Shown piece by piece: positions 430 to 60,190 of a stretch of 64,000 nucleotides of DNA. The notes beneath the pieces are model-generated. The model was not told the origin of the DNA. It saw nothing but the letters and a program-made list of their open reading frames with translations, and did not search any database. The position numbers and the translations under genes are program-made. Positions within the stretch are counted from its first letter, which is position 1, and each line of letters opens with the position of its first letter. The DNA is from Rhynchobatus australiae (Eukaryota): NCBI GenBank assembly GCA_034780895.1, contig JAUZTB010000098.1:38835796-38899795 (forward strand). Reading direction: 5' to 3'.

Positions 430-1750
430 CACCATCTTCATAGGTTCATAAAGTTACACAATTCAGAAACAGGCCTTTCGGCCTATCTTGTCCATGCCAA
501 CCAACACTCTACCTAAGCTGAATCCGTTTGCCTGCATTTGGCCCAAATCCCTCTGAACTTCTCTTGCCCATGTACCTGCCCAAATGCCTTTCAAATATTA
601 TAATTGTACTTGTCTCTNNNNNNNNNNNNNNNNNNNNNNNNNNNNNNNNNNNNNNNNNNNNNNNNNNNNNNNNNNNNNNNNNNNNNNNNNNNNNNNNNNN
701 NNNNNNNNNNNNNNNNNTATGCTAATTCCCTTTGCCCCCATTTAGTCTATAACCCTTTCAGCTTTTCTTATCCATGTACCTGTCCCAATGCCTTCTGAAT
801 GTTGTAATTGTACCCTTCTCTGCCACTTCCTCTGGCAGCTCATTTCATTCTGCCCAACACCCTCTGTGTGGAAAAACGTGCCCCTCAGATTCTCTTTAAA
901 TCTTTCCCCTCTTACCTTAAACCTGTGCCTTCGAGTTTCAGACTCCCCTACCATGGGAGAAAGACTGCAGCTATCTATCCTATCTATGGCCTCATAATTT
1001 TATAAATTTTATAAGGTCACCCCTTGGCCTCCTTTACTCCAGGGAAAGAAGTCCCATCCTATCCAGTCTCTCTTTATAATTTAAGACCCGCAGTCCAGGC
1101 AGCATCTTTATGAATCTTTTCTGCACCCTCCCTAGCTTATCCACATCCTTTCTATAGTCTGGCAAGCAGAACTACACACATTACTCCAAGTGCAGTCTAA
1201 CTAACATTTTGTACAACTGTGCCATGAAGTCCCAACTCTGGTACACAATGCCCCAGCTGTTAAAGACAAGAATGTCAGATGCCTTCTTCACCACCCTGTT
1301 TACCTGTGTTGCCACTTTCAGGTAACTGTGCACAAGTACCCCTAGGTTTCTCTGTTCAACAACATTCCCAGGGCTCTGCCGTTCACTGTGCATGTTTTGG
1401 CCTGGTTTAACTTCCCAAAATGCATCACTTTGCACTTGTCTGTTCCATCAGCCATTCCCATGCCACTTTCCCAGTTGACTTAGATCCTGTTATAACCTTA
1501 GATGACCTTCTTCAATGTCCACTCTACCACCAATTTTGGTGTCATCTGCAAACTTACTAATCATGCCACCTATGTTCTCATCCAAAACATTAATATGTAT
1601 GAAAAACAACAGGTGACCCAGTACTAATCCCTGCAACACACCACTGATCATAGACATCCATTCTGAAAATCAGCCCTTCCCCACCACCCTCTGCCTTCTA
1701 CAGCCAAGTTAATTTTGCATCCAATTGGCCAGCTCACCCTGGACCCCATG
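430..1750 (-). mobile_element. Degenerate CR1-like (HER1-type) LINE 3' fragments, split by an N gap
   Basis: Minus-strand translation VEQRNLGVLVHSYLKVATQVNRVVKKASDILVF...LYKMLVRLHLE is the CR1 ORF2 C-terminal region (consensus DLGV.VH.SLK...QV..VVKKA.G.L.FI / LY..LVRPHLEY). CR1-type 3' tails lie at ~430-617 and ~720-1000. Confidence 0.9.
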
Positions 1751-3750: not shown

Positions 3751-6140
3751 AGCCCCAGAGACTGAACACTGGAGATGCTTTGGCTATGAAGGGACCTTCA
3801 GAAATGTGGTACGGAAACAAATTCAAACCATTGTTCTGGTTTTCTTCTCCTCAGGGAAAAGATCAAAAACATGGAAGACCTGCTCCTGCTGCAGTCAGGA
3901 GGATTTGATGTTGAGGAAGAGCCTCAGTCTTTGCCTCAGAATCCTCCAAGATCATTTTCTGATCCAGAGTTTGCTCCAGAAGGCAGGATATGGTCACACT
4001 TCCTCTTCCAAGTTGTTCACAGGAATATTTCTTTCATAAGCATCCTTAAGAAAGAGGCTCAATAAAGTCCTTGCAACCGGACATATTGAGGATCTGCAAA
4101 TTCTTCTATGCCAGGCCATACAGGCCAGCTGGACCTCTTAGAACTTCCTGTCTTCTGTCTTATAGCAAGCAGGAGAGTATGGACCATCCCTGACCTCTGG
4201 ATGACCTGACAAAGTCCACCTAGTCCTTCAAAATGAAGTGGTGGCTTGCTGGCTCAGCTGTGCTTTCCTTTGTGTACAACACTATGTTTTGTCAGAAGCA
4301 GCAAGGGGAGAGGAAAGAGACAGGAAACTAGCAATCCATCTCACTGTTTAATGTGGTTTNNNNNNNNNNNNNNNNNNNNNNNNNNNNNNNNNNNNNNNNN
4401 NNNNNNNNNNNNNNNNNNNNNNNNNNNNNNNNNNNNNNNNNNNNNNNNNNNNNNNNNNNACTGTTTAATGTGGTTTGCAATGATCTGTCCAAAGATCACT
4501 GCTAAATGAGTCAAATCTGCTCTTGAGCTAGTGATACACGCAGGATAGATTGGCACCAAATCAGCAAGAAATTCTCTGACACCCTTGCACTGTTCACTAA
4601 GTCTTTTGTCAAATTCATCTGCGGTATTGTGGGTTTAATAGGAATGGTGATCCCAGGCAGCAGAGGCACTTGGATCAACTTCTCTCTGTAGGTGGTCAAT
4701 TTCGCCACCTTCTGCTCAGATTCAAATTTGATCCCCAGACTCGTCAGCATCTGAGACCAGTTTGAACTGGATTTGGGGGGGGAAGGGTGCAGAGTAAATC
4801 GTAAGGCCACCTTCTTTGTCAAGTGATCCTTTGACTCCTTTACTGTCAGCAATCAGCTGAAGATGCCGTTTATATCATGTGCAGGAGCCAGGGCATGCAT
4901 CAAGGACTGGGCGCCATAGACAGTCAAGTGAGGTAGACACTAGGATTGTGGGAGGGCGATACCTCTTGGTTGTGAGGAAGAAGCTCGTCATCAGGTGCAA
5001 GGTGCTCTTGGTATCGCTGTCCATGGAGGATGTAGTCCTTACCTCACTCCTGTGCTGCATCTATCACCCAAGCTACTTTCTATTTTATCTGGAGATTGCA
5101 AATGGAACACGTGTGCAGGGACTTGATGTATGAATCTCCAGAATAAAGTGGGATGCAGAGATAAACATTATCAATGAGGCGCACATATTCAAGACTAACT
5201 TTTTGTGTGGTTGTGTATTGTCCCTGGGATGCAAATTCCAAACATCCTGAGATATCTGGACATATCATGGCTTGGTATGGCAACTGCTCTGCCCGGGACT
5301 GCAAGAAACTACAAAGAGTTGTGGACACAGCTCAGCACATCATGGAAACCAGCCTCCCCTCCATGGACTCTTTCTATACTTCTCGCTACCTTGGTAAAGC
5401 AGCCAGCATAATCAAAGAACTCTCTCATCCAGACATTCTCTCTTCTTCTCTCTTCCATTGGGCAGAAGATACAAAAACCTGAAAGCACGTATCACCAGGC
5501 TCAAGGACAGCTTCTATCCCACTGTTATAAGACTATTGAATGGTTCTCAAGTACAATAAGATGGACTCTTGAACTCACAATCTACCTCGTTGTGATCTTG
5601 CACCTTATTATCTACCTGCACCGCACTTTCTCTGTATCTGTTACACTTTATTCTGCGTTCTGTTGTTGTTTTACCATGTTCTACCTCAATGCACAGTGTA
5701 ATGAATTGATCTGTAGGAATGGTATGCAAGACAGGTTTTTCATTGTACCTCGGTACATGTGACAATAATACACCAATTCCTATTCGAATTCTAACAGTCC
5801 AGATGTTTTTGCAAAGGATGGCTCTAGTTATATTGCCCTGGAACATTCACTTCAACTAGATTATCCTGTATCACCAATCCCTCATGGGAAAGATTACATA
5901 GGAAACCACTTTTAAGCAAGCAATGATCAATGTGGAATGCCTTTGAAACCTTGTCAGTAAAGGAAATAGTGGATCTTGTCAGATGGTTTCCTCAAGAAGA
6001 GTATCAAAGCCTTTTGCAGAATGCCTAATCACCTGAATATTCGCCAGGAACTTGCTTAGGTTATGGTGAGAAGGAATCCCTTGAGTCAGGTCCTTCATGC
6101 ACAGGCAGAGTCCCAGTGCCAACACATTCCACCTTCAAGG
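3751..6140 (+). mobile_element. Degenerate Tx1/L1-clade LINE ORF2, interrupted by a Rex/Babar insertion
   Basis: Plus-strand frames with stops and frameshifts give IPGSRGTWINFSL*V (cf. IPGSGG.QVKASLYMDD), LVSI*DQFEL..RVNRK, YFIWRLQMEHVCRDLMYESPE, and after 5800 RWFPQ..QNA*SPE..QELA*VMVRR..VRSFMH. All match fish Tx1 ORF2 motifs in the correct order. Confidence 0.8.
5245..5795 (+). mobile_element. Rex/Babar LINE 3' fragment nested in the Tx1 relic
   Basis: ISGHIMAWYGNCSARDCKKLQRVV (Rex1/Babar consensus ITAWYGNCSA.DRKKLQRVV). The 3' UTR ends ...ttttcattgtacctcggtacatgtgacaataata. Confidence 0.88.
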
Positions 6141-9399: not shown

Positions 9400-9861
9400 T
9401 TACAAACTTACAAATTAGGAAATGGAGAAAGCCACTAAGATTATGATCTGATTCAAACATCAACTCTGCATTCTCAGTTATCCCCAGTAACCTTTCACCT
9501 CCTTCTTTGCTTATCAAGAATCTATCTACCTCTGCCTTAAAAATAGTCAAACACTTTGCTTCCACCACCCTTTGAGGAAAAGATTTCCAAAGACTTGTGA
9601 CCTTCTAAGAGAAAAACATTCACTTCATCTGCTAAATTGGTGACCCCTTACTTTTAAACAGTGACTCTTGGTTCTAGAATTGTTTCTACATTCGCTCTGT
9701 TATACCCTCTAAGGATCTATTTTTGTTTTGTTTCAATCTTCTTATCTCCAGCAGATACAAGCCCAGCTTTCCAATCTTCCCTCATAAGACAACCAGACCA
9801 TTACAGGCATCGGTCTAATAAACCCTCCTTGAATTGCTTCCAATGCAATAACATCTTTCCT
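9400..9861 (-). mobile_element. CR1-like LINE 3' fragment
   Basis: Minus translation VVEAKCLTIFKAEVDRFL is the CR1 ORF2 terminal motif. Confidence 0.8.
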
Positions 9862-35027: not shown

Positions 35028-35910
35028 CTCGGCAACACAGAAAAGTCGGGAGGATGAGGTGATGAGGGTGGTTTGGAGTTCTTCCTTGACACTGGACGCG
35101 AAGTGTGAAGTTAAGCCGAGCCGCTGGGGATGGGGATGGGTTGCTTGGTGTTTCGGGGGCTGTCNNNNNNNNNNNNNNNNNNNNNNNNNNNNCCCCACCC
35201 CGGTGGTCATGTGATGCGCCCGCCCGCCCGCCCGCCCCGTCGTCTCCTTTGTTGTTTCGGTGGCTCAGTCCCCGAATTCGCCCCTGTGAGGAGGGGAGGA
35301 CAGCGGAGAGGGGCGGCCGAGGAGGCGGACACTGGCAGGGAGCGGGAAGGAGAGGGACTGAACCATTCATCGCCAGCGTCCACTTCAACCGGGGGAGGGG
35401 AGGGGAGGGGGGGAAAGAGGGTCCGAGGAGCTGTTTGGAAGAATTAGGATTGAAGAAGCAGCGCCGTGTCCTGAGCACGCAGGGGGAGCGAAGAGGCAGC
35501 GGGAGGGGATGGATGGTGCGGGGACGAGCGCTTCTTCCCGTTGGCTGAGGAGGAGCCGCCGCCGCCGCCTGTTCCGCGTTACCGTCTCCCACCCCCGACC
35601 GTTCGCCGCGGGCTTGTTCGCCTTCAGCCGGCGGCTCTCCTCCGCTCCGGCCATGGTGGTGTCAGAGTTGTTCGCCCCTTCCCAGCGCGCCTCAGCCGGA
35701 CCCTCGGTGTGTTGTTGCCTCTGGTTATTCGCCGTGCTGCTGCTCGGCAGCCTGCCCGCCGGGCTGCCCGCCAGCCCGCTCTCCAGCGCCGAGTGTCAGA
35801 GCGGCAGAGGCAGAGGAGCCAACTGCTCAGGTGGGTGAGACACAAAGAAACCGAAACATTTTGCTTTCCCCCCCCCCCTCCTCGTTGCTTAAAACGGCTC
35901 GGCGCCGGNN
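35020..35910. promoter_or_regulatory. CpG island spanning the TMEFF1 promoter, 5' UTR and exon 1
   Basis: Abrupt rise in GC and CpG content versus the AT-rich, CpG-depleted flanks. CACCC box at 35193-35201, E/M-box GTCATGTGA at 35206-35214, tandem GC boxes (cccgccc) at ~35218-35238. Continues into the N gap at 35909. Confidence 0.9.
35653..35830 (+). CDS. TMEFF1: TMEFF1 (tomoregulin-1) first coding exon: signal peptide and N-terminus; phase-1 intron follows
   Basis: Strong Kozak ggccATGG. The peptide MVVSELFAPSQRASAGPSVCCCLWLFAVLLLGSLPAGLPASPLSSAECQSGRGRGANCS has a hydrophobic signal peptide and matches human TMEFF1 as recalled (AFCC..VLLLFAFSLPG...DCPGGKGKSINCS) better than TMEFF2 (DCQTPTGWNCS). 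Donor CAG|GTGGGT follows 35830 (178 nt, phase 1). Confidence 0.85.
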
Positions 35911-44200: not shown

Positions 44201-47200
44201 CATAATCTTTCTTTCTAATTTTAATCCTGTTTAAAACCTAGATAGATCACCTGGATTATAGTCATGTATGGTGTGTTATTAGTAAACAGAGGGCTCAGTT
44301 TGAAATTGTAATTCCTGATGTTAGTAGGGCTACAACTTCAGGATGAGTACCCTTTACAACCTTGTTCTCACCACAGTGAAGTTGCTGTAATTTTGAATAG
44401 GACATCTCAACTGCACCTGAAGCAATTTGTTGTTTCATATGATAGGCAATTTCAATGAATAAATCACATCCTACAACCTCATTTGCTACTTTACATCAGA
44501 AGTGTCAGAAATTGCATTGTGTACAGTTTCATCATTTCTATGGAAAGAAAGAGATCGGAATTAATTTTTGTGGAAGTTGTGTCTCTGAGTTTCACAGCAA
44601 TAATCCAGGTTGCTGCTGATCTAATACCTCTCCAGCAGAAAGCAGGCTCCCCTCCTTCCTTGCATTTGTTGGATGCTGTGGCCAATATTAAAAGGCTTTA
44701 ATCTAGTGATCAGCATTAAAACAATTGTTTTATTCCCACAGCTTGCCAATCAGTATCAATGGGCCTGCAGTTGAAAATCAAGCCTGTTTCTTCCCAGGAA
44801 TGGCATTTACCTGTGCCTTCCATTGGGGTGCCCTAAACTCAAACTGGCCCCACTGTGCAACAAGCAATGCAATTGGAACCCTACTCTATTATATGAAGCA
44901 ACATCTCGCACAAAATAGGATAAATATTGTAACCTAGCCACAGGAATCAATTGTTACTTACAAATCTTATGAATATCATTTCCACAATTCATGATTTATT
45001 TGAAACTCCCAATTCACTTATAGGATCAATTACTCTGTGTAAACATTTTGTCAGTTTTTAGATTTCTTTGTGTCATGTACAAGGTGAACATCGGGCAGTG
45101 TTTCATTCCATTAGCAGGAGGTCACCAGACCATGCTACACATTGAATGAAATTCATTAACCTCCCTTCTGTGATGCATTATTCACCTCTCATTTCAGTGG
45201 TGCACATATGTAATAAATGCATGCAAGATCAAATCCCATGTTAGTTAAAAGATTTTCATGTTGAAATCATTCACTCCAATGTAATTTATTATAGATAAAT
45301 GTATTTGATCAAATATTCTTTAAGATGCATCTTAAATAATATACCATAATATTTGTGTGTGATAGCTGTTCTTGGAAAGTGAATTATTCTGAATCTAATC
45401 CATTTTATATTAATTTTCTAGCTTCTGCCCTCCATCACNNNNNNNNNNNNNNNNNNNNNNNNNNNNNNNNNNNNNNNNNNNNNNNNNNNNNNNNNNNNNN
45501 NNNNNNNNNNNNNNNNNNNNNNNNNNNNNNNNNNNNNNNNNNNNNNNNNNNNNNNNNNNNNNNNNNNNNNNNNNNNNNNNNNNNNNNNNNNNNNNNNNNN
45601 NNNNNNNNNNNNNNNNNNNNNNNNNNNNNNNNNNNNNNNNNNNNNNNNNNNNNNNNNNNNNNNNNNNNNNNNNNNNNNNNNNNNNNNNNNNNNNNNNNNN
45701 NNNNNNNNNNNNNNNNNNNNNNNNNNNNNNNNNNNNNNNNNNNNNNNNNTGGGAACATTGCAGGGTTCCATCTTTTTCTAGATTTCTGTGCATGAATATT
45801 TGGTTAAAACCTGACTTCAATGAATGAGCTAGTTGTAAAAGTTATGTTAACCATACATTTGAGTAGGACATCCATGTACAATCATCTGTAATTCCCTGCC
45901 AAAGACAAAAAATTACCTACTTCTCTTATCTGCTTGTGATGGAAAATTTAATTACTTGACAATCTGGTGAGAGCCTGTTTTGGAAATTTATTTTTATGCT
46001 GGATGTCAAAATCAAATGCAATATTTTCCTTATAAACAATAACACATTCATGAACCAGTGTTATAAAACTGGTAGTTTAATGAAAAATATCCTGTATTGT
46101 TTTGACTATGGTTGTGTGTAAGCTTCCAGTTACAAGTAAATTTGCCACAAAATGCACTTGGTAAACAGTGATAAAGCTTTCCAAGGATTACTCACTACTG
46201 TTTGCTTGTAAAATACCACGATGCAATGTAGAAACACCAGTAATATCCACATGTTTTTCCTTTTGTGGTTGAATTAAAGATCTCCCTTTTGATATTTTTT
46301 TCTTTGAAATTGCTGGCTGTGAAACTATGAGTATCTTGAAAATACCAATTTCAAGTTGTGCCCTAAATACACAGATTTTGTCTGTGGCAAAATATATATT
46401 TTATCAAATTGCATCTTTTGATGTACAGTTACCAGAATATACATCAACGTCAAAGCAGTAATAACTAAAGTAAAAAGATAAAGCATACATGGAAAGTTGC
46501 CTCAAAGTGAAAAACGTTATCACAAGATCTGTGGTCCTGTATTAATGTTGAGGGATTTAGTTATGCTGCTGGAGGAACCTGGTCCCCACCTATCTCTAGC
46601 TGTGTTGTGAACGGCCATCTGGTTCTTGTTTTTCATCATCTCTAATGATGGAATAGAATGTTTTAGGAAAAATCAGTACAGATTAACCAACCTTGAATTG
46701 TTTATCTGATAATTTTGCTCTTGGATGTAATTATCATCAAAAAATATATCTTCCCCCCCACCCACCCACCCAATTCTTTCTACAGCTTAATGGTCTGCAT
46801 TATGCTTGATCAGGTCTTCCACCTCCATCCCCACCCTCCGACACCCTCTCCCAACAACTATTCCCATGGCTATGCTTCCTTTCTGTGCCTCTTTGGATTC
46901 TTTTGTTCTGGGGTCCTTGCTACCATGGCTGTCCCATGAGGCGGAGTGCTCCATGTATAGTGACTACGCTCTAGTTATCACATCTTAAGGCCCTGTCTCC
47001 AAAATGCCCCAATGTCTTTTAACAGCTCGTCCCTGTCAAAAGCCTTTCTATTTGATCATCAGTGTCATTTAGAAGCCGTTCAATAGAATTTAAATAATTG
47101 AAAAAAGTAACAAAAATGAAGTAAGTTAATTAGAGACATTAAGATAAATAAAATAAAAAATATAAGTGGTCAGTGACCCGTTCAAATGAATGAGATTGTG

Positions 47201-47820
47201 ATACATACATCAGCCATCTATGGTGTAAGGCTGAGAGGTTGGAAATGAAGTGCACCTGGTCTTTTAGCTCAGGACATTTCTGCTCTATGCCTGGAATCAT
47301 TGCTGAAGCAGGAGATAAGGTGCATTGATCTCCAGAGTCTATCTGACTTTGTGCACTACAGTGTATAGCTATGAACTCAGAGATAGTTGACCAGTGAAGA
47401 TCACCTTGGCAACAGTCATTTGTAGAATCACTGATTATAGACAAATAGATCTTGGGCCAATAATTCCGGTGATCACATGCAGGACCTTATTTTTCTATGC
47501 ACTTATGATTTGGTTGCATCACCATGGATGTTATAAAGGGCATTGGTGAGATCACATCTGGAGTTCTGTGTAGTATCGTTCTCCTTATTTAAAGAAGGAC
47601 ATTAATGCATCGGAAGCAATTGAGAGTAGGTTTACCTGGAATGGGCAGATTGTCCTGTAAGGAAAGATTGAATGTTAGGCTTGTATCTACTGGGGTTTAG
47701 CTTGTGAGAGAGGACCTGACTGAAACGTATTAGGGTGAGAGTGGAGAGGATGTTTAATTTTGTGGGAGAATCTAGAACTAGGTGTCATTGTTTAAAAATA
47801 ACAGGTCACCCACTTAAAAC

Positions 47821-48190
47821 TGGCTGCAATGTTACTATACCTTTTTTAGGTAAGAGGATGAAAAATGTACACAATAATCGAGGTGAGACCTCACTAATAC
47901 CCTGTACAGTTGCAACAAAACCTCCCTATTTCTAATTGCCAACTCCTTTGCAATGAAGGCCAAAATGCTGTTTGCCTTTATTATTACTTGTTGGACCTGC
48001 CTGCTAGCTTTTTGGAATTTATGTGCTGGAACACCTAGATCCCTCTACATGTCACTCACTTGTTGTCTTTCTCCGTTCAGATAATAATCAGCCTTTTGAT
48101 TTTTTTTTACCAGAAGTGCATGACCTCACACTTTCCCGCATGAAACTTTTACCCAGTCACTCAATCTGTCTATATCCCATTGTAGTCACT
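47821..48190 (-). mobile_element. Second CR1-like fragment in opposite orientation, adjacent to the TRPN1-like exon
   Basis: Reverse complement gives DLGVPAHKFQKASRQVQQVIIKANSILAFIAKG...LYRVLVRSHLDY. Confidence 0.85.
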
Positions 48191-48278
48191 TATTTTCTTT
48201 ATAGCACATCCTGGAAATAAAGTGCTGGATCCTGGTTCCAGTTTGTGTTGTTCAGAGTTTTGATCTTCCACCACTTAC

Positions 48279-48411
48279 TTTGCGGTCCTCTGTCAGTTTT
48301 AGGGTTATGTTATTCTTTCGGATTAAAAAGCTCACCACCTCTTGGTGGTGGTCAGCTGCTGCATACTGAATGGGCGTCTTTCCTTCCTTACATTCCAACT
48401 TGGGAGAAGCT
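48279..48411 (-). other. TRPN1: Isolated exon fragment encoding an ankyrin repeat and linker of TRPN1/NompC (5' end lost in gap); functional status unknown
   Basis: Stop-free ASPKLECKEGKTPIQYAAADHHQEVVSFLIRKNNITLKLTEDRK ends at a perfect phase-0 donor AAA|GTAAGT (48278-48273). It contains the ankyrin motif G.TP..YAA..H..VV.FL and aligns with the recalled Drosophila NompC GASPKSETNYGCAAIWFAASEGHNEVLRYLMNKEHDTYGLMEDKR. Confidence 0.78.
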
Positions 48412-50009
48412 NNNNNNNNNNNNNNNNNNNNNNNNNNNNNNNNNNNNNNNNNNNNNNNNNNNNNNNNNNNNNNNNNNNNNNNNNNNNNNNNNNNNNNNNN
48501 NNNNNNNNNNNTCCCCAAATGGCCTTGGAAGCAGAATCTTTGAATATTTTTAAGGCTGAGGTAGATAGATTTTTAAAATGCAAGGTGGCAAACGGTTACC
48601 ATGGGTAGATGGGAATCCAGAGTTGAGGTTACAATCAGATACAATCAATCTCATTTAATGGTGAAACAGGCTTGAGTGGTCAAATGGCCAACATTTGCTC
48701 CTAATTCATATGTACAAGAATTTGTATTATAAACGTTTTATCTTGGCTGTGAGAAAAACGTTTTTACTGTTCACTAGCTTCAATAATTTGTGTGATTGAA
48801 TTCTCAAAATCTCTTTGCTGCTTTACCTTCCCAATATTTCACATTTAAAATGTGCTGTGATTTATCTTTCTTGTATCCACAGCAGATGATCTCTCACTTC
48901 CCTGTGCTGAAATTGATTTGTCATTGAATGGATGAAACATGTTTATGAGTGGCAGGTGGCATGTTTTTTTCAGCCACAATAAACTTTTATATATACATGA
49001 ATTAGGAGTATGTTTAGGCCACTCAAGTCTGCTTCACCACTTCATAAGATCCTGGCTCATCAGGAGATTTGCAGAACCTCCAATGAAATAGCAAAAATAT
49101 ACTCATGGTAGATGATCTGGGGATCCCCGTAGACATTTAATGCCTTTGCTTTTATAGTTAATTTTGTTCCTCTTTTGAAGCTGCTTACTCAGGCTTACTC
49201 TGAAGCTGCAATTCTTATTATTCTCTCCAGGCATGACCTGAATTTTAATTATTGCATCCATTTCATTTGCTGACTGCCTAGTTTTAAGTGTGACACCTCT
49301 CATCTGCAGTCTTTACTCACCCCATTGTTGATAACGCTAACATACTCATCAACTCAGAGGTGTTCTGTGATAATCTCTGTTTAAAAAAATTCACCTTGAA
49401 CAAGCATACACGAGAGTGGGAAAGACCAATTGGTCCATCTAGTCTGTTTCATACAGGCTTGATGCCTGGTGGATTACAAATAATGCACTCCCACCTACAT
49501 GGAGATACATAATCTTCTGGAAGAGGCCGAAAACACAATTGGTGGGGAAAAAATCCCTGACATGTCAGCAACTGGTTCAATAACTCCACTCTTCTCTGGG
49601 AACAGAAGTTTCAAGTCTTCAACCTTTCCTGCCCTATCCCATTGAATTAATTTTTGTGTGTAAGCATAATTTAATCCCTTTGTTATTTCATGAGCCTTAA
49701 TCAAGTCATACTCAGACTATGCTTCTAACCCTCCACTTTGAGAATTAGAAGTGAAGACAGTTTTGGACAGTTTTCTAAATCAGAATAAGACAGGATATTT
49801 TGTCTCGTAGTTACTGAGGAGAGGAGCTGTGATATATTTCCAGGTCAGAATGATGTGTGACTTGGAGGGGAGCCTTAAGGTGATGGTTGGAAAACAAAAC
49901 TTGTGGATCTGAAACTAAAGCAGAAAATGCTAGAAATAATCAGTACATGAAATAGAGAAACAGAGTTAAAATTTCAGATGGATAAAATTTATCAGAACTA
50001 TTTCTACCA

Positions 50010-50790
50010 TACCTTCTGGTGTCTGCATGTGCATGCGCCCTTCTCTTTCTTGGTGGTGGAGATCCTGGGCTTGGAAGGTGCTCTCAGAATAGCCAAGACC
50101 ATTTTGTAGATCGTCCACAGTATAGCCATGCTGTATTAATGATGGAGAAAATGGGATACCAGTCAGAGGTGTTTTGTCCTGGATGATGTTGAGCTTATTA
50201 AATTTTGTTAGATCTGCACTCCTCCAGGCAAGTGGCGAGTATCCTTTACAATCTTTGTAGTTGATAAAAGTCTTTTGGGTAACAGGAGGTGAAACACATA
50301 TTGCAGAATACCCAGACTCTGACTGGGTCTTGTAGCTACAGTGTCTAATGTAGCTAGTCCAGACATTGATGACCCCTCTGGATGTACGTAATTGGATTTT
50401 GACAGATGTCAAGAACACACAGTTAGACTCTCTCTTGCTTGAAATGGTTGTTCCCTGGTATTTTTGAGGCACCCCATACCTGCGTGTCATTAGGTCTTGC
50501 TGCATTGCATGCAGGTGTGGGCTATTTCATTTTCTGAGGAATTGGAAATGAAGTAAATATTGTGTAATCATTAGGGAACAAACTCACTTCTGACATTATG
50601 ATGGAATGAAGGTCATAAATGAAGCAACTGAAACTGGTTGAACCGACATATTGCCCTGCAGAGCTGCAGCAGCAATGTTGTGGGAATGGGATGGTCGACC
50701 TCCATAACCAATTGGAGGTGACCAAAGTATGGAGCAGGATTTCAGCACCAAATGTGCTGAGATAGGGCAAGAGACAGCAAGTGGTCAGAG
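50010..50790 (-). mobile_element. Decayed L2/CR1-group LINE fragments
   Basis: YSPLAWRSADLTKFNKLNIIQDK and EVSLFPNDYTIF (degenerate FADD) form one element. PYLSTFGAEILLHTLVTS (L2 motif) lies at ~50715-50775. Confidence 0.7.
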
Positions 50791-51119
50791 TCNNNNNNNN
50801 NNNNNNNNNNNNNNNNNNNNNNNNNNNNNNNNNNNNNNNNNNNNNNNNNNNNNNNNNNNNNNNNNNNNNNNNNNNNNNNNNNNNNNNNNNNNGTGGTCAG
50901 AGTCAGCGACCATTAAAGGAATGGAAGTTCAGTTTCCTCATAAAATATACTGCCAAGGATATCCAGTATCTTTAACAAAGTAGAAAATAATATTATTGAA
51001 TTTGCTAATTGCATATCGTAGTATCTTAAAACATTTGTAAATGCATCAAGGTTTGACAAACCTTTGTCAGTTTGTTGATAAAGCTTATTTTTCTCCTGAA
51101 AATAAAAAAACCCATAGAT

Positions 51120-57859: not shown

Positions 57860-60190
57860 GTACTGTTCAAATTTCTGAAATGAAATGAGAGCAGTGTTAC
57901 AGGATAGTGAAGGGGTGGCTGACAAGGGAGGGGCAAAGCTTATAAGCAGAAGTATGCTTCAGAATTTGAATCTGAAGTAAGTAACAAAGATAAAAAATAA
58001 AAGATTAAGCCTTTTCAACTGAAACATGCAACATTTCTAACAAGATAGATGAGTTGTTGGCACATGTAGAAGTAATTGAGTTTGATTTAATGGCTATTTC
58101 AGAGACATGGTTTCAGGGCTTACCAGGACTGGGAATTTAATATTCCAGGTTATTTGATGTTCCAAATGAATAGACAAAAAGAAAAACATTGTGGGTGGTA
58201 TTATTCATTAAAGAAGGTATCAGTGCAGTGGTAAATAGCATTATAGATGCAGTGAATTGTGATGTTGAATCGGTTTGGATGGAAATAATAGCAGGAGAAA
58301 GATAACATGGGTGGGAGTAGACTATGGGCCTCCAACACAGCTGGGGAATTAAGAAAAGAAAACAAAGAAATGGTAGATAATTTAAATCAATACTTTGCAT
58401 CAGTATTCACAGCGAAGGGTACTGCAGATATCCCAAAGAAAACAGATGGTGTTGTTTCAAATAGCATGGAAGAGCTTGTAATACTCCGTATCATGAGGGA
58501 CAAAGTATTTGAAAAGTAATGGGATTTAAGGCAGACAAGTCATCTGGACCCAGTGGTCTGCATCTAAGGGTTTTACAGGAAGTGACTGCAGAGACAGTAG
58601 AACATGTATTTGAAGTTTTTCAGAAGTCACTGAGTTCGAGGAGTGTAATAGCAGATTAAAAAAAACACAAATGTGATTTCCTTGTTCATGAAGTGAAGGA
58701 AACAGCACAGATAGATAAGGTGGTAAAGAAGACCAATGGGATACTTGCCTCCATTAGCTGGGTCATAGAATATAAGAGCAGGAAGGATAAGTACAAATTT
58801 AATAAACATTGGTTCCACCACAGCTGGAGTAGAGTGTGCATTTCTGGTTGCCACAGTATAGGAAGGATATGATTATACTGTAGAGGGTGCAGGGCAGATT
58901 CACCAGGATATTGCTTGGGATCGAGTGCTTCATTAGAAGAGACTAGATAGGATAGGTTCATTTTTCTTGGAACAGAGAAACTGATAGGTGTGTGGGGGGT
59001 GGGGTAGGGGAGGAGGGGTACTCGGAGAGGTATGAAAATTTGGAGGGTCGTAAATTGAGTAGATTGGAGGAAACTTCTCCCCATGGCAAAAGCGTCTAAA
59101 ACTAGAGGGCATGGGTTTACGTTAAGGTGTAAGAGGTTTTGAGAGGTTCCGAGGAGGATTTTTTTCACCCAGAGGGTGGTTGGAATCTGGAACACACTGT
59201 CTGAGTGGGTGCAGGAGGCAGGTATGCTAACAACCGTTATGATGTATCCAGTCGATCACTTGAATCACCAAGTCATAGAAGGCTATTAACCAAGTGCTGG
59301 TAAATGGAATTAGCACAGATGGTCAGCATGCTCATGGAGATCTGAAGGGCCTGTTTCTGTGTTCTATAACTCTATGACTCTGTGAAAAAGTGGGAATCTA
59401 TAGGCCAGTTATCTTAACATCTGATTTTGTGTAGATGTCAAAGTCTATAATCAAGGAAGAAATAACTAGTCATTTAGAGAATGTTAATGCAATTAAAGCA
59501 AATCACCATAGTTTTATGAAAGGAAAATCACATTTGACAGATTTTCTGGAGTTCTTTGAGGATATGATAAACAGGGTCAACAGAGGGTGACCTGCAGAAG
59601 TAATGTATTTGGATTTCCAGAAGGCATGTGACAAGATGCCACATAAAAGGCCAGTGCACAAAATAAGACTCATGGTACTGGGGAAGGTATGCAAAGTGGA
59701 TTGAAGNNNNNNNNNNNNNNNNNNNNNNNNNNNNNNAATGGGTGTCTTTTTCAGATTGGAAAGTTGTAACTAGTGGAGCATCCAATAGATCAGTTCCTGG
59801 CCCTGCATTATTTGCTGTCTCTATTAATGACTTGGAAGAGTGTAAAGAATACAAATTTGCTGATGATGTAAAAATAGGTGGGAGGTCATGCTGCGATGCT
59901 TGGACTCTGCAACTGGATATCAATAGGCTGGGTGAGTGGGTGGAAATTTGGTCAACTGAGTTTAATGTAAGAAGTTGCGAGGTCATGCACTTTGATTGGA
60001 GGCAAAATATTAAAATCAAAAGGCAAATTATTATCCAAAGGAAAGATTCTGCTAATAAATGGAGAACAGAGAATCAAGGTGTCCTTGTGCATGTATCACA
60101 AAAATATAGCCTGCAGAAGCAGCAAGCTATTAAGAAGGCAAATGGCATATTGGTCTTTATTGGTAGGGGGTTGGAGTATAGCTCATTGGT
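57860..60190 (+). mobile_element. CR1-like LINE ORF2 (endonuclease through RT), internally deleted and interrupted
   Basis: FDLMAISETWFQ (EN domain), NLNQYFASVFT, DKSSGPSGLHLRVL, YRPVILTS, MYLDFQKACDKMPH, FSDWKVVTSG..SVPGPALFAVSINDL..YKFADDVKIGG. Confidence 0.9.
58705..59385 (+). mobile_element. Second CR1 3' fragment nested in the CR1 at 57860-60190
   Basis: IDKVVKKTNGILASI...KTRGHGFTLR...FFTQRVVGIWNTL with its own (ctctatga)n tail at ~59365-59385. The host CR1 then resumes with GNL/YRPV. Confidence 0.88.

Follow-up and report, generated by a model that had tools for sequence, protein, structure and literature searches.

Chimeric contig ends mediated by repeats are known in short-read scaffolds. 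Chimeric contigs and gaps of fixed size have been discussed for a bird assembly, in passages that deal with the problem in general and not with the exact failure described here (PMC7757076), and class 2 templated insertion polymorphisms, in which a few hundred bases derive from a distant locus, are described in human (PMC5110952). As for the gene concerned, TRPN1/NompC has about 28 ankyrin repeats and TRPN is reported to be single-copy in bilaterians except amniotes, sharks being unmentioned in the part of that paper covering its distribution (PMC4494053). Our literature search found no paper on TRPN1 in sharks or elasmobranchs, and the sections of PMC7306681 bearing on the question contain nothing on the TMEFF1/TRPN1 locus. 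Shark and ray TRPN1 is nevertheless already annotated in many NCBI genomes, so a TRPN1 exon in itself is unsurprising.

We analysed a 64-kb stretch of Rhynchobatus australiae DNA (the window), where a block with a piece of a TRPN1 exon sits 12.4 kb into intron 1 of TMEFF1, antisense to the host gene (Table 1). We favour, with a probability of about 0.88, the reading that an assembly switch between repeat copies at ~47760–47801 joined the block to TMEFF1 intron 1; the exon fragment is real, its position most likely false. Read thus, the locus shares with repeat-mediated chimeric contig ends of short-read scaffolds a switch in a high-copy LINE, a short foreign overhang and a 100-N spacer (with 34 gaps in the 64 kb), but differs in that the overhang contains a recognisable coding exon. 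Its size, the lack of poly(A) and the homology at the one visible join also recall a class 2 templated sequence insertion, which, however, as defined in PMC5110952, requires a second copy and two sequenced junctions, neither of which was found here. The initial annotation had put capture of genomic DNA from the true TRPN1 locus first and a repeat-mediated assembly chimera second; it is this second option that now reads best, with capture reduced to an unlikely rival.

Table 1. Features of the block, its flanks and the host gene (positions in the window).
Feature	Position	Strand	Evidence
TMEFF1 (tomoregulin-1) coding exon 1, host gene	35509..35830	+	protein match to Pristis pectinata tomoregulin-1-like
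Left flank, mostly single-copy, part of TMEFF1 intron	45750..47507		exact X1 contigs and 97–98% X2 contigs, single-copy depth
Decayed CR1-type LINE 3' part, native to TMEFF1 locus	47508..47801	+	X1 record 3, X2 record 12; aligns with copy at 9633–9859
Putative switch zone between two LINE copies	47760..47801	+	window-specific letters end at 47759; fit of X2 record 12 ends at 47801
End of second plus-strand LINE copy (GHPLKT) and junction with minus-strand piece	47802..47824	+	spanned by X1 record 4
Minus-strand CR1-type LINE piece, TRPN1 intron	47825..48189	-	translation LYRVLVRSHLDYCVHF; 66% to copy at 59959–60174
TRPN1 intron start, GTAAGT donor 48278–48273	48190..48278	-	sequence; exon end same in skate genomic ORFs P0012/P0046
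TRPN1 exon, 3' 44 codons (and one base) of 69-codon exon	48279..48411	-	last ankyrin repeat and linker, Pristis residues 1029–1072
Placeholder gap, exactly 100 N, cutting TRPN1 exon	48412..48511		one of 12 such gaps
Plus-strand LINE remainder (PQMALEAES and tail)	48512..48724	+	75% to copy at 9439–9578; X1 record 5 exact from 48539

The exon piece is a genuine, unchanged fragment of TRPN1. As first described, 44 codons run without a stop on the minus strand (48279–48410) and are followed directly 3' by an intact GTAAGT donor (48278–48273), a hexamer that occurs 19 times per 118,618 strand positions in the window and here coincides exactly with the exon end in relatives. All 44 encoded residues are shared with the annotated TRPN1 proteins of Pristis, Carcharodon and Mustelus and with two further isoforms; a peptide search gave 11 matches among 23 candidates (E 6.7e-32 to 4.1e-21), with TRPN1 and not another ankyrin protein as best match, bearing out the proposed assignment to the last ankyrin repeat and linker of TRPN1. 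These 11 proteins, from sharks, rays, a chimaera, a frog and coelacanth, comprise five annotated as TRPN1 and six with the same flanking residues, and the matches exclude a different ankyrin gene as source, such as inversin, a neighbour of TMEFF1 in human. Among the 60 structure matches listed, the longest was Drosophila NompC (5vkq), whose residues 1101–1143 align with query residues 1–43. The terminal LTEDRK, earlier attributed to drift in a non-functional copy, proved to be the normal string, present in 38 of the 41 proteins that could be aligned to the piece (46 fetched), and no amino-acid change, stop or broken donor was found in the 44 codons.

What the window lacks is the rest of the gene. 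Compared with Pristis pectinata TRPN1 (XP_051879417.1), the fragment shares all 44 residues, the exon end and the position at the last ankyrin repeat/linker, but represents 44 of 1,643 codons, with neither acceptor, other exons nor channel domain. LTEDRK is followed by GT both in the window and in the skate genomic ORFs P0012 and P0046, and the next TRPN1 exon begins with FIFDL (P0043–P0045); the exon start, NGW or NSW in skate genomic ORFs and two exon-skipping isoforms, lies 25 codons upstream, giving an exon of 69 codons. The 44 codons initially taken for an exon are therefore its 3' part, 25 of the 69 codons and the acceptor being absent, and the point of truncation is the 100-N gap itself. 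The other side of the fragment agrees well with the original description of ~85 bp of its own intron next to a minus-strand CR1 piece, since a non-repeat intron stretch of ~88 nt (48190–48278) adjoins LINE sequence at ~47825–48189; as exon plus intron, the block is indeed genomic DNA and not cDNA. The search found no short genomic ORFs containing both the exon and the window's intron start, and an exact 24-base scan of metagenome contigs gave 0 matches.

Some minor features emerged from the protein comparison. At position 31 of P0001, all fetched stingray and devil-ray TRPN1 proteins covering the site have Q, against R in sharks, skates, Pristis and the window; the window codon is CGA, and a CpG change would account for the difference. 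Cross-species contamination, considered over this Q/R difference, was rejected: the TRPN1 piece (44/44) and TMEFF1 exon 1 (105/107) each agree with Pristis, and with both fitting a ray near Pristis, DNA from a foreign species need not be invoked. Several TRPN1 entries carry other names (P0008, P0010, P0011, P0018 and P0040: ankyrin-1-like, short TRP channel 1-like, phosphatase 6 ankyrin subunit-like), and Leucoraja TRPN1 is apparently divided between two models.

Placement in TMEFF1 intron 1, as initially annotated, holds for the scaffold as assembled. Of the 107 aligned residues of exon 1, 105 are shared with Pristis pectinata and 95–96 with stingrays and devil rays, and no later TMEFF1 exon occurs within the 64-kb window. 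In relatives the two genes are apart: separate chromosome-scale contigs carry TRPN1 and TMEFF1 in all 13 named sharks and rays present in both lists (Pristis, two Mobula, Hypanus, Hemitrygon, Narcine, three skates, Heterodontus, Scyliorhinus canicula, Mustelus and Carcharodon), by an indirect test in which unequal sequence sizes denote distinct sequences (102.5 versus 116.6 Mb for TRPN1 and TMEFF1 in Pristis). Two further pairs are concordant if species are read from the accession series.

The block is embedded in LINE sequence, which we assume to be CR1 from C-terminal motifs of the reverse transcriptase; Pfam, run on another of the LINE copies, returned only RVT_1 (E 0.062), and the matches of an Atlas search were unnamed eukaryotic clusters. 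The pieces are high-copy, with summed depth of up to 4,449 against ~5 typical in X1, one of the public runs considered below, and the minus-strand piece at 47825–48189 has very high summed contig depth. The plus-strand element had been described as split by the block, its reading frame stopping at GHPLKT and resuming at PQMALEAES. The two halves are there (GHPLKT up to 47821, PQMALEAES from 48513) and both flanks of the gap belong to one LINE element; the halves are not flush, however, lacking between them 54 nt present in the window copy at 9430–9861, and the element carries stops and frameshifts, its reading frame being only local. It also has a deletion near 47732. The short plus-strand end at 47802–47824, with its junction, is likely native to the TRPN1 intron.

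The gap that cuts the exon is one of a suspect kind. The window has 34 runs of N, 12 of them of exactly 100 N, and six of these 12 have flanks that overlap by 8–24 nt and are probably adjacent in reality; the 100-N spacers thus give no true distance. These six lie at 4360, 7998, 17101, 29089, 30264 and 50793, where the scaffold is slightly inflated. At 48412–48511, where the LINE halves are 54 nt apart in the 9430–9861 copy and 595 nt apart as assembled (from the aligned end to the gap), the implied distance is −541 nt, a value undecisive on its own since a real insertion would yield the same arithmetic. A comparable foreign overhang was not seen at the other five non-overlapping 100-N gaps, and this failure is thus known from one case. 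With 610 nt, the overhang is similar in length to the largest sized gaps of the window (473–697 N), which would fit an extension limited by insert size.

Fourteen public runs from seven studies, none recorded as RNA, match part of the stretch, and four (X1, X2, X3 and X5) were compared by aligning their short contigs to 45750–50792 at 88% likeness, the results resting on the contigs listed. X1 is possibly the source sample and gauges how faithful the assembly is, not serving as independent support. Seven of its eight listed contigs are exact (0 differences over 3,708 nt), including record 3 (47607–47777). The eighth, record 4 (47734–47931), is the only listed contig across 47820/47821; it differs at seven letters and continues left of 47734 with 79 letters that do not fit the window, orientation being taken from X2 record 9 and X5 record 25, which overrun the left end of the stretch. 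Between 47734 and 47759, the window differs by eye from the consensus of LINE loose ends at six positions; these window-specific positions would explain six of the seven differences, whose own positions are not printed, and the deletion near 47732 would explain where the fit of record 4 stops. The 47820/47821 junction is therefore real DNA, its left neighbour being most probably a different LINE copy. It had been singled out as the place to look for a mis-join; as record 4 spans it and misfits farther left, the suspect join moves 20–60 nt further left, inside the repeat.

X2 comes from another organism, ~97.5% alike, whose orthologous LINE does not enter the block: its record 12 fits 47492–47801 (10 differences), beyond which its next 115 letters do not resemble the block. 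A joint from 47801 to 48512, with a side of 44, occurs in three X2 contigs among those listed; subtracting the ~69 LINE letters missing between these positions from the 115 leaves 46, near the joint side of 44, although such a joint could arise from any intact LINE copy. Among the listed contigs of the window's own species, none gives an exact match leading from the left flank past 47801 and on to 48512 (X1 record 3 ends at 47777). No listed contig has the window's exact left join, the right join being a gap, and none connects 48189 with the exon.

After correction for the 42 N in its bin, the exon had a depth of 6.4 versus 5.4±1.4 for other contigs (n=7) in X1, 5.8 versus 6.2±1.2 (n=8) in X2 and 11.8 versus 11.7±3.3 (n=8) in X5. 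It thus looks single-copy-like in all three runs that cover the exon, with no sign of a second copy, summed contig depth, low in these runs, being a rough measure that gives no copy number and in which a heterozygous insertion (~1.5x) would lie within the noise. At 47839, X1 has a depth of 14.3, of which record 4 accounts for 8.0; the residual may stem from other LINE copies or from a second copy of the junction.

Together, these data argue for a misjoin. The one X1 contig across the block's left end contrasts with seven exact ones, the orthologous X2 LINE leaves the block at 47801, and X1, X2 and X5 all show an exon depth resembling that of single-copy sequence. Moreover, the exon, identical over 44 residues to that of relatives, ends exactly at a placeholder gap without its 25 codons and acceptor, half of the 100-N gaps join overlapping flanks while the exon gap implies a negative distance, and the two genes are on separate contigs in every one of the 13 species. 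The identity of the exon, its cut at the gap and the contig fits are direct observations.

How the misjoin may have come about can be sketched as follows. The TMEFF1 and TRPN1 introns would each carry an old CR1-type LINE copy, the two being near-identical over ~40 nt (47760–47801). Contig extension or gap filling could then have passed from the TMEFF1 LINE to that of the TRPN1 intron, running 610 nt into TRPN1 intron and exon and ending mid-exon. Read pairs would have kept the true flanks linked, and the negative gap computed from them would have been replaced by a fixed 100-N spacer. The true TMEFF1 LINE would accordingly have ~69 nt more between 47801 and 48512, and TRPN1 would lie elsewhere as a normal single gene. 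The switch point, the behaviour of the assembler and the place of the remaining TRPN1 in this species are the parts of this scheme that we infer. Such an artefact serves as a warning: next to at least one placeholder gap, this scaffold would carry sequence that belongs elsewhere, and this exon may be missing from the true TRPN1 model of the assembly.

A real, recent capture is the best of the other explanations, albeit an unlikely one. Sequence copied from the TRPN1 locus would have patched a break in the TMEFF1 LINE, or recombined with it through LINE homology, and this species or individual would now carry a dead exon fragment in TMEFF1 intron 1. The genomic nature of the block suits this, as does a left join inside LINE homology, expected from homology-primed repair; templated insertions are known in human (PMC5110952), a young copy would carry no drift, and the X1 depth at 47839 has room for a second contig. 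Against it speak the single-copy-like exon depth of X1, X2 and X5, an orthologous X2 LINE that stays out of the block, and a right edge formed by an assembly gap instead of a sequenced junction. X1 record 4 is, moreover, unbroken at the would-be meeting point of two copies, where, judging from how k-mer contigs form, a shared path should split. Capture further requires that a second copy exist and that the event be younger than the divergence from the organism of X2. There is a slim chance of a very young inter-chromosomal transfer, possibly still polymorphic, in which a cartilaginous fish would show LINE-guided exon capture at its very beginning; as an example of templated insertion outside mammals it would be modest and probably of little consequence, the piece being antisense and without a visible acceptor. 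A class 1 (LINE-mediated) templated insertion finds no support: the visible edge, the other being unsequenced, has no poly(A), and 54 nt of the target are missing and not duplicated.

Quite improbable is a second join near 48200, by which the LINE piece and the exon would come from two different places. X3 (~99% alike) record 22 fits 48078–48200 with two differences and then departs with 264 non-fitting letters, X3 has no depth at the exon, and no listed contig bridges 48189 and the exon. X3 is shallow, however (depth 2–3, 21 of 30 bins covered), several bins are uncovered in X3 and X5 and such holes were not used as evidence, and the placement of the exon would still be an artefact. The break itself, at 48200/48201, is located at a T-rich site 11 nt into the non-repeat intron, and a lineage-specific insertion there is a simple alternative to a second join.

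The initial annotation had already rated a nested antisense TRPN1 gene the less likely outcome, and had found no other TRPN1 exon in the 64 kb. On both counts the searches agree. In tblastn of the fetched proteins of >1,300 aa against the window, only the exon at 48279–48410 was found (next-best E 0.11), a profile from 33 full-length TRPN1 proteins matched one of 3,214 six-frame segments (E 1.4e-24; next best 0.75), and colinear exons for the ankyrin array and channel domain of a functional or nested gene are absent from the window. An actual TRPN1 gene in antisense orientation, nested in TMEFF1 or overlapping it, with its remaining exons in the gap of undefined size or beyond the window, is thus very unlikely, scarcely to be credited despite the undamaged exon and donor, since the next exon would have to lie >48 kb away, past TMEFF1 exon 1, the LINE halves flanking the block match one element, and the 13 named relatives all keep the two genes on separate chromosome-scale contigs.

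Two observations concern the remainder of the window. TMEFF1 exon 1 is surrounded by a GC-rich island (35193–35908) and has two in-frame ATGs, at 35509 and 35653, the first being the start in annotated rays such as Pristis and Mobula and the second in skates and sharks. At 3752–4062 there are overlapping stop-free stretches of 91–95 codons, one of them rather acidic; they have no Pfam match and may represent an exon of some gene upstream or mere chance.
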